From an uncultured Candidatus Saccharibacteria bacterium (GTDB lineage: Bacteria > Patescibacteriota > Saccharimonadia > Saccharimonadales > Saccharimonadaceae), in assembly GCA_947090635.1 (NCBI GenBank), contig CAMUOM010000001.1, positions 42,277 through 106,276 of the forward strand: a stretch of DNA of 64,000 bases, written 5' to 3'. The notes beneath the pieces were generated by a model. The model was given only the letters and a program-made list of their open reading frames with translations. It did not search any database and was not told the origin of the DNA. Below are positions 1-39,851 of the stretch, piece after piece. The stretch's first letter is position 1, and the number at the start of each line of letters is the position of its first letter. Made by a program: the position numbers and the translations under genes.

Positions 1-2121
1 GACCAACACGCCATAAGTTTCCTTGAGCTGTGGTTCCATCGACGGATGCGGATAAGTAATCGGCTCCTCGCCGTGCTTACGCTTAATAAAAGTATCAATA
101 AACTGCATCGGGCCCGGGCGGTACAATGCCACCATAGCAATAATGTCCTCAAATTGCGTTGGCTTTAGGTCCTTTAAGTAACGCTTCATGCCAGCTGATT
201 CAAGCTGAAACACTCCAGTGGTATCACCCCGCTGCAATAATTTATACGCCTCTTGGTCATCTAGTGGCAAATGGATTAAGTCTAGATTATCACCATACAC
301 CTTGCGAATGATACGGCGGCAATTGTCAATAATCGTCAAGTTGGATAGACCCAAAAAGTCCATTTTTAGCAGGCCCATTTCCTCTACTTCTGGGGCTGGG
401 AACTGTGTCGTGATAACACCCTTCTGAGCAATCTCAAGCGGGATAATATTGATTAATGGCTCCGGCGCAATCACCGTACCGCAAGCATGTACGCCATGAC
501 TACGAATCGTACCTTCTAGCTGAATCGAATAGTCATACACCCGCTTCGCCGTCGGATTAGTGTCATACTCATGCTTCAAATCTGGGTCGCTGGCAATTAA
601 ATCCTTTAAAGTGGCATGATGCGATGATTGTGGCCCGCTCGGCACCAACTTTGATAAACGGTCTGCCTCAGCGTAAGGCACCTCTAGCACCCGCGCCACA
701 TCGCGCACCGCGGCGCGCGACGCCATCGTACCAAATGTCACAATATTGCAAACATGGTCATGGCCATATTTGTCAGCACAATACTGAATCACAGCATCAC
801 GACAAGTATCTTGCATATCGACATCAATATCCGGCATGGAAATACGTTCTGGATTCAAGAAACGCTCAAACAGCAGGTCATACTTTAACGGGTCAAGGTC
901 AGTAATGTTAATCGCGTAAGAGACAATTGACCCAGCCGCTGAACCACGCCCTGGCCCAAACACATAGCCCTGACTCTTACCCCAGTTAATAAAGTCCTGC
1001 ACAATCAAGAAGTAGCCTTCATAACCCATCGAACCAATCACACCAAGCTCCATCTCAGCCCGCTCACGCACTTCGTCCGACAACATCGGCTTGATATCTT
1101 CGATGGCATATTTCTCGGCCTCTTCCGGCTTCATACCGTTATAACGCACCAGTAAACCATGATAAACCAACTTATGAAAATACGAGTGCTCCGTCTCACC
1201 CTCTGGCAAAGACGGGAACTTTGGAATCAAAATCTGGCCAAGTTTTATCTCCACATTACAACGGTCAGCAATTCGCTTGGTATTTAATATCGCTTCTGGG
1301 CAATCATCCTTCCAGTGGTCAATAATGTCACGCGGGTCAGTTAAGTGAAGCTCAAAGTCCTCTAGCGACATGCGATTTTTATCGCTCAAAAACGACCCTG
1401 TGCCCACACATAGTAATATTTCATGTGCTTTCTGATATTCATGCGATAAATAGTGGCCATCACATGTCACCACCAACGGAATGTCTAATTCCTTCGACAT
1501 CTTCATTAGACCATTGTTTATTGTCTCCTGCACCTTCCAATGCGTATGACTTCGCGGATGGCCGTGGTCTTGTAGTTCTAGATAGTAACGGTCGCCGAAC
1601 ACACTCTTATACCATTTTGCGATCTCAACAGCATGCTCATAATCACCCGTCTTAAGCGCCACACCAACTTCACCCGAAGCACAACCTGACAAGACAATCA
1701 GGCCGGCATTCAATTTCTCTAATAGCTCATGGTCAACACGCGGCTTATAGTACATCCCCTCCAGATTAGCCGTCGAAGAAAGGCGCATCAGATTCTTAAA
1801 ACCTTCGTCATTCATTGCTAGCACTGTTAGGTGAAAACGTTGCTTGTCTTTAGCAGGGTCGTGGTCTTGCATACGGCGCGCCGCCACATAAGTTTCGATA
1901 CCTAAAATCGGCTTGAGCCCAGCGGCGTTCGCCTTCTTGTAGTAGGTCAGTACACCAGACAACGTACCATGGTCGGTAATCGCTGCCGCCTCCATGCCAA
2001 ATTCCTTACACTTGCTAATCAAATCATCCAACTGCGTCATGCCGTCAAGCACGCTGTAGGTGGTATGATTGTGCAAGTGTACGAAATCACTGGGCTTAAA
2101 TTCGTACTTTCCCTCACTCAT
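1..2121 (-). CDS. dnaE: DNA polymerase III alpha subunit, N-terminal part (continues beyond window start)
   Basis: Reverse-strand translation from ATG at 2119-2121 gives MSEGKYEFKPSDFVHLHNHTTYSVLDG, the PHP-domain N-terminus typical of DnaE. The frame stays open to position 1. TGcTATAAT lies 7 nt upstream of the ATG. Confidence 0.9.
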   Translation of the reverse strand, partial: MSEGKYEFKPSDFVHLHNHTTYSVLDGMTQLDDLISKCKEFGMEAAAITDHGTLSGVLTYYKKANAAGLKPILGIETYVAARRMQDHDPAKDKQRFHLTVLAMNDEGFKNLMRLSSTANLEGMYYKPRVDHELLEKLNAGLIVLSGCASGEVGVALKTGDYEHAVEIAKWYKSVFGDRYYLELQDHGHPRSHTHWKVQETINNGLMKMSKELDIPLVVTCDGHYLSHEYQKAHEILLCVGTGSFLSDKNRMSLEDFELHLTDPRDIIDHWKDDCPEAILNTKRIADRCNVEIKLGQILIPKFPSLPEGETEHSYFHKLVYHGLLVRYNGMKPEEAEKYAIEDIKPMLSDEVRERAEMELGVIGSMGYEGYFLIVQDFINWGKSQGYVFGPGRGSAAGSIVSYAINITDLDPLKYDLLFERFLNPERISMPDIDVDMQDTCRDAVIQYCADKYGHDHVCNIVTFGTMASRAAVRDVARVLEVPYAEADRLSKLVPSGPQSSHHATLKDLIASDPDLKHEYDTNPTAKRVYDYSIQLEGTIRSHGVHACGTVIAPEPLINIIPLEIAQKGVITTQFPAPEVEEMGLLKMDFLGLSNLTIIDNCRRIIRKVYGDNLDLIHLPLDDQEAYKLLQRGDTTGVFQLESAGMKRYLKDLKPTQFEDIIAMVALYRPGPMQFIDTFIKRKHGEEPITYPHPSMEPQLKETYGVLV

Positions 2122-2195
2122 TATGCCCATTATAGCACATATGCTTACGACGACCTAATCACTAAAGCTACCCTTACATTTACCCGTTTACTTAT

Positions 2196-2534
2196 TTAGC
2201 CTTTAAAGTGTATCGGGGCGCCTTCGTCACTAGCTGGTGGTTCGGTGCCATTACGGCACTTAAAGAAATTTGCCCAATATGGGTTCTCTTTATCAAACAG
2301 CGCCTTTTGTTCTGGCGTAAACTTCCACGGGTAATCACACCATAAGTTAAATATCCTGTGGCGGTCAAAAGAGACTAATAACTCACCCATCATCCTATCT
2401 CCAAAATCAACTTTAGGTTTGTAAGATAAAAAGTGATCTACCCAATATATCTGGTCTTTTTTATTTCTTTTCTCAAAGACATATATGCTATGACCTCGTC
2501 TAATACTATTTGACGGTATCCTTATCTCCTGCAT
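2196..2534 (-). CDS. Small conserved hypothetical protein; paralog of 32904..33206
   Basis: 112-aa ORF whose C-terminal block KFTPEQKALFDKENPYWA-FF is identical to the ORF at 32904..33206. Nucleotide differences between the two copies are synonymous. AGGAG lies about 10 nt upstream. Confidence 0.7.
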   Translation of the reverse strand: MQEIRIPSNSIRRGHSIYVFEKRNKKDQIYWVDHFLSYKPKVDFGDRMMGELLVSFDRHRIFNLWCDYPWKFTPEQKALFDKENPYWANFFKCRNGTEPPASDEGAPIHFKG

Positions 2535-2607
2535 TTATGAATATCTCCTAATATTAATATACCCTATACGCCAACTGAATGTAATAAGAGATGCCTTGTC
2601 AAATAAC

Positions 2608-2700
2608 TTGACTTTCTAATTGGAGTTTGACAGAATAGAAGTATAAGGCGATTTGGGATCGCGAGCACCTATAGTTCGCGGTCGCTGAATCGCCTTTTTA
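2608..2700 (+). ncRNA. Candidate small structured RNA unit A1 (promoter + hairpin + U-tract)
   Basis: -35 TTGACT at 2608-2613, 17-nt spacer, weak -10 CAGAAT. Hairpin 2645-2696 has outer stem aaggcgatt/aatcgcctt and inner stem gatcgcg/cgcggtc with one G-U pair. It is followed by TTTTT. Confidence 0.4.
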
Positions 2701-2719
2701 GTATTATATAAAAATCCCG

Positions 2720-2811
2720 TTGACTTTTTGAGCTTTATTTAATATAATAAACGTATAAGGCGATTTGGGATCGTGGAATGCATATTCTGCGGTCGCTGAA
2801 TCGCCTTTTTT
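2720..2811 (+). ncRNA. Candidate small structured RNA unit A2 (promoter + hairpin + U-tract)
   Basis: -35 TTGACT at 2720-2725, 17-nt spacer, consensus -10 TATAAT at 2743-2748. Hairpin 2757-2807 has the same outer stem as A1 and is followed by TTTTTT. Confidence 0.45.
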
Positions 2812-2925
2812 AATACCGTAATTTTAAAATAATCATTTAGAATTACAGCAAAAGATTTAATATAGTTGTATTAGAATCGCAAGTAACTTTAAAATACACT
2901 CAATTGCCACTCATAGAAACTCAAC

Positions 2926-2969
2926 AATCTATCACTCGTCGGTTGGTTATATAGATAGAGTGATAGATT
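2926..2969. repeat. Perfect 12-bp inverted repeat (aatctatcactc / gagtgatagatt) with a 20-nt spacer
   Basis: Arms lie at 2926-2937 and 2958-2969 and are exact reverse complements. The repeat is intergenic, between the hairpin units and the ytxH-like gene. Confidence 0.6.
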
Positions 2970-3019
2970 AGACTTATTTAACCTAGCTTATAGCGAGCCT
3001 ATTCTATAGCACATAAGCT

Positions 3020-3343
3020 TTATTTTTGGGTATTTTTGCGGAGATTTGCAATGTCGTCTTTTAATTCTTGAGCTTCGTCTTTAGCAAAATCAGAGATATT
3101 GCCAGCGTGCTTAGTTGCAATATCAGCCGTAGCATCAAAACCATCTTGTGCCGCCTGCTTAACGTCAGCTGCCTTCTGAGTAGCTGCATCCTTTAACTCA
3201 TTAGCCTTATTGGCTAAATCAGCACGCGTCTCTTTACCCGATTTTGGTGCAGTTAGTAAACCAACGATAGCGCCAGCTGCAATACCAAGCAGGGCACCTA
3301 GCGCAAACTTACCAGCACCGGATTTGTTATTCTGATTCGACAT
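3020..3343 (-). CDS. YtxH-like stress protein (DUF948/YtxH family)
   Basis: The N-terminus GALLGIAAGAIVGLLTAPKSGKETR matches the YtxH motif. The rest is Ala/Lys/Asp-rich. AAGGAGG SD upstream. Confidence 0.7.
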   Translation of the reverse strand: MSNQNNKSGAGKFALGALLGIAAGAIVGLLTAPKSGKETRADLANKANELKDAATQKAADVKQAAQDGFDATADIATKHAGNISDFAKDEAQELKDDIANLRKNTQK

Positions 3344-31504: not shown

Positions 31505-32307
31505 TATCGTAGCCTCACGCTAATCGGACAATGGTCCGAACCCATTTGATTTGCATAAATCTGCGCATCAATAATTCGCTCCTTCAGCCTCTCGTCCACC
31601 ATAAAATAGTCAATCCGCCAACCAACGTTATTTTCGCGCGCATGCGCCCAATGCGACCACCAAGTATATTGCTCCGGCAAATCGCCGTGTATCACGCGAA
31701 AACTATCTACGAATCCTTGCGCAGTATACTGATGCCAGCCATCACGCTCTTCATCAGTAAAACCAGCTTTACCTCGATTTTGCTTCGGGTGCGCCAAATC
31801 GATTTCTTCAGCCGCAACATTCAAATCGCCACAAAACACTACTGGCTTAGTTTGCTTTAACTGTGCCATGTAAGCTAAAAATGCTTTATCCCATTGCTGT
31901 TCGCGTAGACGAAGTCGGCTCAAATCACTTTTTGCGTTCGGTGTATAAACCGTCACCAAATAATAGTCACCCAAATCAATCGTAATTACACGCCCTTCCT
32001 GATTCGGGTCGCCATACGCATCAGCCACCAAATACTGCTGCACGATATCATCTGGCAAGTTATATGTAACTACAGCATCGTCCGCCACTCCTCGGCGCAC
32101 TAATAATGCCGTGCCACTATACCCAGCCTTAGTGGCACTATTATAAATAATGTTATAATCACCAAAATCGGCCTTGATTTGCTCCGGCTTACATTTTATC
32201 TCTTGTAGCCCCATTACGTCCGGCTGTACCTTAGCCAAAAACTCTTGCAAACCGCCTTTATTTAGCACCGCCCTCAGACCATTAACATTCCACGAAGCCA
32301 GCAACAT
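31504..32307 (-). CDS. xthA: Exodeoxyribonuclease III (AP endonuclease)
   Basis: N-terminal SWNVNGLRA. The C-terminal catalytic residues DYF...SDHCPI are present. 267 aa. Confidence 0.9.
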   Translation of the reverse strand: MLLASWNVNGLRAVLNKGGLQEFLAKVQPDVMGLQEIKCKPEQIKADFGDYNIIYNSATKAGYSGTALLVRRGVADDAVVTYNLPDDIVQQYLVADAYGDPNQEGRVITIDLGDYYLVTVYTPNAKSDLSRLRLREQQWDKAFLAYMAQLKQTKPVVFCGDLNVAAEEIDLAHPKQNRGKAGFTDEERDGWHQYTAQGFVDSFRVIHGDLPEQYTWWSHWAHARENNVGWRIDYFMVDERLKERIIDAQIYANQMGSDHCPISVRLR

Positions 32308-32813
32308 CAGCGCACACCTCGCTTTAGCTCACGCGCCGTATCGCGCTGCTTGATAGCTTGGCGCTTATCATATTGTTTCTTGCCTTTACCAAGCATGATG
32401 ACTAATTTAATATACCGCGCATGCGTCAATAATTTAGTTGGCACTACAGTCAAGCCTTTACTGCGCGCCTCAACAACCCGCGCAATTTCCTTACGCTGAG
32501 CGAGTACCTTAATAGCATCAGTACTTACCGTGGTAGCTGATTGACCGCTACCGCGTGGCGCATTATTTTGCAACGTAAAAGAAGCGTTGATTAAATACAA
32601 TTCATCACCGCGCGGCCCGCGCTTTGGCACCACATAAGCCCCCTTCAAACTAACTCGATTTAATCGCGCCGCTTTTACTTCAAGCCCAGTCAGCGACAAG
32701 CCAACCGTCAAACTATCCGACAAACTATAATCGTAGCTAGCGCGTCGGTTAATTATTACTCCGGTAGACGCTTTATTTTGCTTATGTCCACGCCGCGTCA
32801 CTGATTTTCCCAT
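32307..32813 (-). CDS. smpB: SsrA-binding protein
   Basis: 168 aa with the SmpB core (NRRASYDY....LTGLEVKAAR) and a basic C-terminal tail. TCCTATAAT lies 7 nt upstream of the ATG. Confidence 0.85.
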   Translation of the reverse strand: MGKSVTRRGHKQNKASTGVIINRRASYDYSLSDSLTVGLSLTGLEVKAARLNRVSLKGAYVVPKRGPRGDELYLINASFTLQNNAPRGSGQSATTVSTDAIKVLAQRKEIARVVEARSKGLTVVPTKLLTHARYIKLVIMLGKGKKQYDKRQAIKQRDTARELKRGVR

Positions 32814-32903
32814 ATCTTATATTATAGGATACTTGCGCATAACGTGCCAGTGTTTACCAAATAAACTCACTACAACCTAGGTTTTTGAACTAAATTTATA
32901 TAA

Positions 32904-33206
32904 TTAACCATTTAACGTAGCCATTGTATCTTCATCACTAGTTAATGGTTTAATATCATTACGATCTCGAAAAAAGCTTGCCCAATACGGGTTTTCTTTA
33001 TCGAATAGTGCCTTTTGCTCTGGCGTAAACTTCCGTGTGTAGTCACTAAAGATATTAAAAACTGTTTTGCGGTCAAATGAGACTAAGAATTCACCCTCTC
33101 TGTCATATACACTAACCCAATAAATTTTGTCATTGGGGTTTTCTTTGTAAAATTTATATTTACCTTGGTATAAATGTTTGTCATTACTTTTTCGCATAGT
33201 GCGCAT
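32904..33206 (-). CDS. Small conserved hypothetical protein; paralog of 2196..2534
   Basis: 100 aa. LVSFDR...KFTPEQKALFDKENPYWASFF is shared with the 2196..2534 ORF. AAGGAA SD upstream. Confidence 0.7.
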   Translation of the reverse strand: MRTMRKSNDKHLYQGKYKFYKENPNDKIYWVSVYDREGEFLVSFDRKTVFNIFSDYTRKFTPEQKALFDKENPYWASFFRDRNDIKPLTSDEDTMATLNG

Positions 33207-33235
33207 TCCTTCTTTTACTAATTACCATGTAAATA

Positions 33236-33329
33236 TTGACTAATACCGTACTCTTTAGTAAAATACATATATAAAGTGATTTGGGGTCGCGGCCTGGTAA
33301 AGGCGACGGTGTCAAATCACCTGTTTTTT
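33236..33329 (+). ncRNA. Candidate small structured RNA unit B1 (promoter + hairpin + U-tract); homolog of A1
   Basis: -35 TTGACT at 33236-33241, 17-nt spacer, -10 TAAAAT at 33259-33264. Hairpin 33273-33323 with outer stem aagtgattt/aaatcac, then TTTTTT. The motif tattatata follows the terminator, as in A1. Confidence 0.45.
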
Positions 33330-33341
33330 ATATTATATATT

Positions 33342-33396
33342 ATAAACGATTTAGAATTGTGAAATGCATATTTCGCGGTCGCTAAATCGTCTTTTT
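33342..33396 (+). ncRNA. Candidate small structured RNA unit B2; homolog of A2
   Basis: Hairpin with outer stem acgattta/taaatcgt. The 3' half gcatatttcgcggtcgctaaatcgtcttttt is nearly identical to the A2 3' half. Only a -10-like TATATT precedes it, with no clear -35. Confidence 0.4.
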
Positions 33397-39777: not shown

Positions 39778-39851
39778 TGGGGATTGGCCAAGCGGTAAGG
39801 CACTGGGTTCTGGTCCCAGGATCGGGGGTTCGAATCCCTCATCCCCAGCCA
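39778..39851 (+). tRNA. tRNA-Gln (anticodon CUG), CCA encoded
   Basis: Cloverleaf: acceptor tggggat/atcccca, D-arm gcc-aagcggtaa-ggc, anticodon stem ctggg/cccag, loop ttCTGgt, T-arm ggggg-ttcgaat-ccctc, discriminator G, CCA. Close to E. coli tRNA-Gln. Confidence 0.9.

Follow-up and report, generated by a model that had tools for sequence, protein, structure and literature searches.

The 64-kb stretch of a Candidatus Saccharibacteria (TM7) genome analyzed here (the window) contains two cassettes, at 2131-2895 and 32904-33396, which we refer to as modules A and B. Each is made up of one gene of the DUF7675/phrog_6473 family and two plus-strand units, a unit being a σ70 promoter, a hairpin of approximately 50 nucleotides (nt) and a run of five to six T residues. 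The initial annotation took these units for autonomous tiny RNA genes within a functional module and not for chance terminators, and our computational results support that view: judging from sequence, each unit is in all probability an autonomous transcription unit for a hairpin RNA of approximately 57 nt. The DUF7675 protein encoded at 2196-2534 is 97% identical to its counterpart in the metagenome-assembled genome CAMXXV01, and the DNA surrounding module B matches TM7-H1 (CP026537) with 92% identity over 6.2 kb. The protein genes and units of the two cassettes are as follows.

2196-2534, minus strand: DUF7675/phrog_6473 gene, paralog A, 112 amino acids (Pfam E 9e-26; PHROG E 6e-20)
2556-2585, minus strand: own promoter of DUF7675-A, ATTACA-18-TATATT or, read alternatively, TTACAT-17-TATATT (scan), back-to-back with the A1 promoter
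2608-2636, plus strand: promoter of unit A1, TTGACT-17-TGaCAGAAT (promoter scan)
2643-2699, plus strand: predicted small RNA A1, ~57 nt (hairpin 2645-2696, T-run 2695-2699; ends inferred)
2720-2748, plus strand: promoter of unit A2, TTGACT-17-TATAAT, matching the consensus at 11 of 12 positions (promoter scan)
2755-2811, plus strand: predicted small RNA A2, ~57 nt (hairpin 2757-2807, T-run 2806-2811)
32904-33206, minus strand: DUF7675 gene, paralog B, 100 amino acids, upstream of smpB (Pfam E 8e-28; PHROG E 2e-24)
33236-33264, plus strand: promoter of unit B1, TTGACT-17-TAAAAT (promoter scan)
33271-33329, plus strand: predicted small RNA B1 (hairpin 33276-33320, T-run 33324-33329; fold and covariance model)
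33309-33336, plus strand: weak promoter of unit B2, GTGTCA-16-TATTAT, without a TTGAC box and overlapping the B1 terminator (scan)
33343-33396, plus strand: predicted small RNA B2 (hairpin 33346-33390, T-run 33392-33396; fold and covariance model)

The anatomy first described for module A was borne out. The 112-residue open reading frame (ORF) on the minus strand upstream of dnaE is a member of the DUF7675 family and ends 74 nt from that gene; the tandem promoters TTGACT-17-CAGAAT and TTGACT-17-TATAAT were recovered by our scan at 2608-2636 and 2720-2748, and the two hairpins with their T5-6 runs lie at 2645-2696 and 2757-2807. The promoter inventory was right for the units, but it had missed the conserved promoter of DUF7675 itself on the opposite strand (2585-2556). 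Likewise, the arrangement does recur 30 kb away as a paralogous gene with two units, although the promoter of B2 is only weak. All four hairpins were far more stable than shuffled sequence (z-scores from -6.9 to -3.7), with folding energies of -33.6 kcal/mol for A1 (z -6.1), -30.2 kcal/mol for A2 (z -6.9), -22.5 kcal/mol for B1 and -17.7 kcal/mol for B2. Covariance-model scores were 79 bits for both A1 and A2, and E-values for the four units ranged from 1e-11 to 1e-20, all such E-values made in this analysis being rough. A degenerate pattern matched three of the units, against 0.00 matches expected from shuffles, and the covariance model, run with filters off, found no units in the 64 kb besides these four. 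Known families did not account for them: the sole Rfam 15 match in the window was a tRNA at 39778, and the unit region returned only E > 3, far below gathering scores, so that no relevant match was obtained at either gathering or permissive thresholds. Tandem and direct repeat scans of the window revealed no CRISPR-like array, the apparent 'spacers' being the conserved promoters.

A G+C-rich stem followed by a U-tract is also the mark of a generic terminator, and the units could be ordinary terminators or leader attenuators of neighbouring genes. Module B offers one such neighbour, a plus-strand glycosyltransferase gene that begins 58 nt past the last terminator; the statement that no plus-strand gene lies downstream therefore stands for module A and not for module B. 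This explanation is nonetheless scarcely credible. Nothing is encoded upstream of any unit on the plus strand but its own promoter, a downstream gene in the same orientation is lacking in module A and in most related arrays, and the units neither lie 3' of a co-oriented gene nor recur at many gene ends, the motif being absent from all the other gene ends in the window.

Further copies were sought with a covariance model built from the four window units, which was run on 80 DUF7675 loci from one-genome-per-species GTDB contigs, plus further contigs, with approximately 6 to 16 kb examined around each related locus (loci are designated by L numbers below). It recovered more than 60 others, all of them in six closely related Saccharibacteria genomes. 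Each is on the strand opposite DUF7675 and sits either in a cassette holding that gene or in the parent prophage described below, and the units form head-to-tail arrays of one to five members with a period of 110 to 112 nt. A second model, built from 53 units, gave nothing at E < 1 in 67 other DUF7675 loci outside this clade (374 kb from Clostridia, Bacteroidales, Fibrobacter, Fusobacterium, three more Saccharibacteria loci and two phage loci). There were no units in approximately 50 kb of housekeeping DNA flanking the cassettes (L081, L088-L091), and neither there nor in the window did we see the spread beside unrelated genes that a generic terminator family would have. A pattern scan for the RNA in IMG/VR viral contigs gave 0 matches. 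The single match in a Joint Genome Institute metagenome was rejected as chance, since it lies inside a solute-binding protein gene and does not score with the covariance model. Since only related Saccharibacteria cassettes and prophages score, the motif is neither a generic terminator nor widespread, and the unit family is specific to one genus-level clade of Saccharibacteria. Within the clade, the array copy number is unstable, as one orthologous DHH/DUF7675 locus holds one, four or five units depending on the genome (L088 7010-7069, L081 3834-4226 and L089 6381-6885). One locus, a double cassette upstream of cysS (L091; ENA ERZ937978, SRR3187099), is on a contig from a human skin metagenome, which marks the clade as human-associated.

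The 48 distinct units were compared position by position, with the caveat that such comparisons include paralogs as well as orthologs and that gene conversion may have influenced them. The -35 box was present in 45 of the 48 (as TTGACT in 33), the promoter spacer was approximately 17 nt, and 18 units carried a TG extension to the -10 box, which mostly read TAnnAT. The sequence (C/T)ATAAGG begins 5 nt past the end of the -10 box in 38 of 45 units, and a T-run of five to seven closes 47 of 48. The spacers between units have diverged while the promoter boxes, the distance from promoter to hairpin and the U-tract stay conserved. Pairing in the stem was found in 92.5% of cells, compared with 31 to 51% when the partners were slid; half of the stem pairs (9 of 18) showed changes on both sides, and the observed score was reached by none of 500 shuffles. 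The stem-loop has 19 to 23 bp, with a mid-stem irregularity kept in all variants (a 1-nt bulge or a 2x3 internal loop), and the apical stem-loop falls into about six discrete types that differ by compensatory changes, several of which are found within one array. The stems contain a mean of 4.3 G-U pairs, which explain why the promoter strand folds more stably than its complement (mean -24.1 versus -15.1 kcal/mol; a difference in this direction in 43 of 45 units, p 6e-9). This strand bias points to the RNA of the promoter strand as the object of selection, as opposed to a DNA palindrome or the transcript of the other strand. Taken with the compensatory changes, the conservation and the distribution, it is the reason for reading the units as very probable autonomous RNA genes and not as generic terminators or leaders. 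A separate idea, that the base of the stem mimics a Shine-Dalgarno or anti-Shine-Dalgarno sequence, was rejected because GGUGAU is present in a minority of units.

The relationship between the units and DUF7675 can be traced in three apparently intact prophage segments, L012 (in TM7-H1), L004 and L005. Their gene order is an SPP1-type portal gene, an ORF of 795 to 799 amino acids, DUF7675, which overlaps the stop codon of the long ORF, then a scaffold gene (DUF4355) and the capsid gene. The long ORF begins with a CdiA_C-like domain of PD-(D/E)xK type (PF18451; its stand-alone form matches at E 5e-6), which a linker connects to a Mu F/SPP1 gp7 minor-head domain (MuF) and a further C-terminal domain, and its MuF part has no in-frame ATG start of its own. 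In all three prophages, a single unit complete with promoter and terminator lies antisense exactly in the CdiA_C-like/MuF linker, and the reading frame remains open through it in each case despite differing unit variants. By sequence anatomy this is the arrangement of a cis-antisense gene, with its own promoter, opposite to and inside its putative target; in the window the target gene is absent. In L012, the minor-head protein (627-3014) combines the N-terminal CdiA_C-like nuclease-type domain with a C-terminal domain of approximately 200 amino acids (phrog_7104); it resembles the MuF polymorphic toxins, but has its nuclease-like domain at the N-terminus. The sequence A_AAA_AAG, a dnaX-type slippery site followed by the stem-loop, is in frame in L004 (1065-1075) and not in L012 (1081-1140) or L005 (1068-1128). 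Programmed -1 frameshifting at this heptamer and the sense-strand hairpin was rejected, given that of the three prophages only L004 has the heptamer in frame and that the zero frame remains open.

The chromosomal cassettes retain the unit or units, the last ~27 MuF codons and DUF7675. Two of the three prophages carry the DUF7675 promoter (TTACAT-17-TATATT) inside these codons, as do the A-type cassettes, and the spacing and -10 box of this promoter deviate in one cassette subtype. One deletion junction is common to all cassettes and absent from the prophages, which indicates that a single deletion product has spread. Homology to the prophages extends over 2131-2895 of the window (blastn) and includes two segments that flank the module A features listed above.

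2131-2195, minus strand: segment of phage origin 3' of DUF7675-A, reaching up to the dnaE -10 box (blastn, L004 2933-3388 against window 2586-2131)
2815-2895, minus strand: remnant of the 3' end of the phage CdiA_C-like coding region, 80 nt (blastn, L012 997-1174 against window 2895-2720)

The window cassettes are conserved deletion derivatives of the prophage arrangement, the RNA unit having come to lie beside DUF7675 through deletion of the intervening phage minor-head gene. Elsewhere, the CdiA_C-like domain is found as stand-alone ORFs of 158 amino acids that converge on the arrays with an overlap of approximately 20 nt (L006, L007). The order DHH, array, DUF7675, portal fragment, CdiA_C-like, units, DUF7675 and cysS is syntenic in several genomes, with the CdiA_C-like ORF sometimes broken. 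The right end of the window was also considered as a prophage, and this was rejected as it encodes leuS and other housekeeping genes.

The protein partner is well defined as a family. Paralogs A and B share 53% identity and score 90 and 96.5 bits against a Pfam cut-off of 27. Ratios of nonsynonymous to synonymous substitution rates (dN/dS) against related copies were 0.07 to 0.10 for paralog A and 0.08 to 0.14 for paralog B, and 0.07 to 0.2 for DUF7675 copies overall, with dS up to approximately 1; these values indicate strong purifying selection on DUF7675. Between the window genome and TM7-H1, identity is 98% for the B1 hairpin and 88 to 94% for neighbouring genes. Low dN/dS, the conservation of B1 and synteny in spite of broken CdiA_C-like ORFs together show that the protein gene and the RNA units persist while the surrounding phage genes decay.

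This persistence bears on whether the units are neutral or selfish prophage debris, that is, tandem duplicates kept alike by gene conversion and serving no present function. The cassettes do derive from a prophage, some phage genes next to them have decayed, array size is unstable, and some units have mismatched 5' and 3' arms and weak folds (e.g. -14.9 kcal/mol at L002:2706 and -16.7 kcal/mol at L006:1778). However, debris would not be expected to retain promoter hexamers, spacing and stem pairing while its spacers diverge, to accumulate compensatory changes in the stem, to be as conserved as B1 or to adjoin a gene under such strong selection, and we regard this explanation as very improbable.

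The structure model of DUF7675 (predicted; five beta-strands and three short helices, with a predicted local distance difference test score, pLDDT, of 79.6) had no fold relative in our search. PADLOC and NCBIfam gave no matches, those for PADLOC including the CdiA_C-like protein, and we found no papers on DUF7675. The A-type Saccharibacteria proteins carry a hypervariable insert of 11 to 15 residues at residues 36-50 with the remainder nearly invariant; neither the B-type paralog nor the homologs of other phyla have it. DUF7675 directly follows the annotated MuF gene in Butyrivibrio phage Ceridwen, as it does the long MuF gene in L012, L004 and L005, and this is where a gene for a MuF-toxin immunity protein would lie. 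In pneumococcal phages such as Streptococcus phage IPP67 it is at the equivalent position, behind genes annotated only as hypothetical. The invariance of its motifs across phyla nevertheless argues against a toxin-specific immunity protein. Homologs are also found at the ends of several Streptococcus satellite-phage records (e.g. MK448364.1 8400-8600) as well as in full phages; the satellite occurrence hints at a role in helper-satellite or phage-phage interference. We considered, and rejected, a role for the RNA in opening a hairpin between Shine-Dalgarno and anti-Shine-Dalgarno sequences in the DUF7675 leader, because the gene's own promoter leaves a leader of approximately 20 nt and the complementarity is not conserved.

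The cassettes lie directly upstream of, and co-oriented with, the essential genes dnaE, smpB and cysS (window 2121-2534 and 32307-33206; L081 6001-7815). In the window, DUF7675-A is followed after 74 nt by dnaE, with its start codon at 2121-2119 on the minus strand and a product containing PHP, DNA_pol3_alpha and finger domains, and DUF7675-B is followed after 90 nt by smpB, all in the same orientation. Our scan of the window found no terminator between DUF7675 and dnaE or smpB, and the DUF7675 promoter may therefore feed into these downstream essential genes. On the minus strand at both dnaE (2119-2134) and smpB (32811-32826), a TATAAT box ends exactly 7 nt before the ATG, which suggests that the two mRNAs are leaderless. 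On the other side of module A, a 13-bp inverted repeat (AATCTATCACTC...GAGTGATAGATT; fold -17.3 kcal/mol, z -2.65) lies at 2926-2969, between the module and a YtxH-family gene at 3020-3343.

This setting would suit a transcriptional insulator, in which head-on promoters and terminators stop read-through into DUF7675 and the essential gene and the RNA itself has no role. The units always point against the flanking operon, whose upstream gene is ytxH-like here and DHH or CdiA_C-like elsewhere, and between the ytxH-like gene and DUF7675 the scan gave no convincing minus-strand terminator, only a weak 5-bp stem inside A1; the proximity of the cassettes to dnaE, smpB and cysS fits as well. An insulator, however, needs neither a conserved hairpin with strand-specific, G-U-rich pairing nor compensatory changes and discrete apical types, and the prophage unit lies inside an ORF that must be transcribed through. 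We therefore consider insulation unlikely.

As to what the RNA does, we tentatively favour antisense silencing of the phage CdiA_C-like::MuF gene, a plausible role though one that falls short of probable. A strong σ70-type promoter lying 5 to 7 nt ahead of the RNA 5' end would yield a hairpin RNA of approximately 57 to 60 nt, ended by a U5-7 intrinsic terminator. The system originates from a temperate phage, in which one ancestral deletion removed the body of MuF and so brought the RNA unit next to DUF7675; copies of the resulting cassette then reached several places in the chromosome, among them those upstream of dnaE and smpB in the window, and its units multiplied into arrays. The RNA would act as an antisense regulator of the CdiA_C-like::MuF mRNA, working in cis within the prophage and, when made from a cassette, in trans, with pairing starting at the loop and followed by degradation of the duplex or a block in translation. 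As a result, the toxin-like morphogenesis gene of resident or incoming phages would be kept silent. Transcription, RNA ends, target and effect are all inferred here. The sole sequence shown to be complementary to the RNA is the sense strand of the phage CdiA_C-like::MuF gene, and bulged long stem-loops with their own promoter, antisense to their target, are known from IS10 RNA-OUT, R1 CopA and lambda OOP.

Several points weigh against antisense silencing. The CdiA_C-like and MuF genes are absent from the window (tblastn), so that a target would here have to be reached in trans; the 97% relative of the window genome does carry the prophage (L005). Outside a loop of 4 to 9 nt, nearly every base of a unit is paired, which would limit pairing in trans to near-identical complementary hairpins. 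The similarity among units could be maintained partly by gene conversion and not by selection. Finally, arrays with as many as five copies would suit a stoichiometric RNA that titrates a protein no less well than an antisense regulator.

In that alternative, the RNA would be a decoy or antitoxin-like molecule that binds and neutralises a protein, be it DUF7675 itself or, as a type III antitoxin would, the CdiA_C-like domain, with array size setting the dose. Arrays of up to five units and the variation between one, four and five at an orthologous locus are in keeping with it, as are the stand-alone CdiA_C-like ORFs of L006 and L007 that converge on the arrays, and DUF7675 is the constant companion of the units in the cassettes. 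Almost wholly double-stranded units would also make poor seed-pairing RNAs. On the other hand, the CdiA_C-like gene is missing from the window and from several cassettes, and some of its copies are disrupted (L002/L089). The units lie on the opposite strand with one promoter each, unlike ToxI-type arrays, neither candidate protein has a PADLOC match, and dosage does not call for mixed apical types within an array. On balance we find titration unlikely, if less so than insulation.

Comparison with known systems places the units between several of them. ToxI repeats, the RNA component of type III toxin-antitoxin (TA) systems, are 36 nt long, co-transcribed from one promoter on the toxN strand and cut by ToxN. 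The likeness to the units is that of tandem short structured RNA repeats beside a nuclease-type gene on mobile DNA, but the units have a period of 110 nt and individual promoters and terminators on the opposite strand, and a PADLOC search found no ToxN/AbiQ homolog. Among cis-antisense hairpin RNAs, IS10 RNA-OUT, R1 CopA and lambda OOP are approximately 60 to 90 nt long, have their own promoter and terminator and are transcribed against the gene that they control, as the prophage unit would be inside the CdiA_C-like::MuF gene. The known examples are single-copy and lie over a 5' leader or gene end, whereas the prophage units lie in an interdomain linker and their descendants form arrays detached from the target.

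Closest in architecture is NsiR1 of heterocystous cyanobacteria, an RNA of approximately 60 nt encoded in tandem direct repeats, with 12 copies in Anabaena PCC 7120 that each have their own promoter (PMC4030482). Our units share this pattern of head-to-tail repeats, with individual promoters and terminators and a predicted RNA of similar length, but there is no sequence or structure homology between the two and the units match no Rfam family. In addition, NsiR1 is a chromosomal gene that depends on HetR and whose RNA targets host mRNAs, while the units are phage-derived, have consensus σ70 promoters and are paired with DUF7675.

In the type I TA systems of prophages and prophage remnants (B. 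subtilis txpA/RatA and bsrG/SR4; E. coli ralR/RalA), antisense RNAs silence a toxin with the aid of RNase III (PMC3531473, PMC3834814). The convergent 3' overlap of units with CdiA_C-like ORFs in L006 and L007 is similar. Where those systems have a small membrane peptide, the putative toxin here is a nuclease-type domain of approximately 158 amino acids that is often part of a fusion with a head protein, and a toxin gene is missing from the window cassettes. Inspection of the sequence opposite the units showed no conserved small ORF preceded by a ribosome-binding site, and a toxic mini-ORF in the style of Ibs/Sib was rejected for want of a conserved start codon or ribosome-binding site. In their likely mode of action, the units would nevertheless be closest to the cis-antisense hairpin RNAs and to these type I antitoxins.

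The MuF polymorphic-toxin loci of temperate phages consist of a portal gene, a gene for a long MuF protein with an extra domain and a small ORF (PMC5576092). DUF7675 takes the position of the small ORF. Unlike a toxin-specific immunity protein, it also follows MuF in Butyrivibrio phages, holds the equivalent place in Streptococcus phages and is very strongly conserved across phyla. We know of no RNA component described for MuF loci. The units belong to none of these systems and look like a new lineage-restricted small-RNA family, unusual in its nesting in a phage head gene, its capture and its multiplication.

According to a 2022 preprint, no small RNAs have been validated in TM7x, the model strain of the Saccharibacteria. 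For this phylum, the units provide a well-defined candidate small-RNA family of over 60 copies, for which a covariance model is available and the RNA ends are clearly predicted. They also provide a traceable path, from an RNA gene nested in a phage structural gene, through deletion, to a cassette near essential genes and on to arrays, and the system offers a handle on DUF7675/phrog_6473, a widespread phage protein placed right after MuF. If the RNAs act on the phage gene, they would represent a simple RNA-based control of phages in bacteria whose genomes are very small. A more far-reaching proposal, which we think quite improbable, is that the chromosomal cassettes form a heritable RNA-based anti-phage repertoire that, together with diversified DUF7675 paralogs bearing a hypervariable loop, would silence or block the MuF minor-head gene of incoming phage relatives; a nested phage antisense gene would have been captured, multiplied and diversified into hairpins with different apical specificities. 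If true, such a repertoire would amount to innate antisense immunity in a reduced-genome epibiont.

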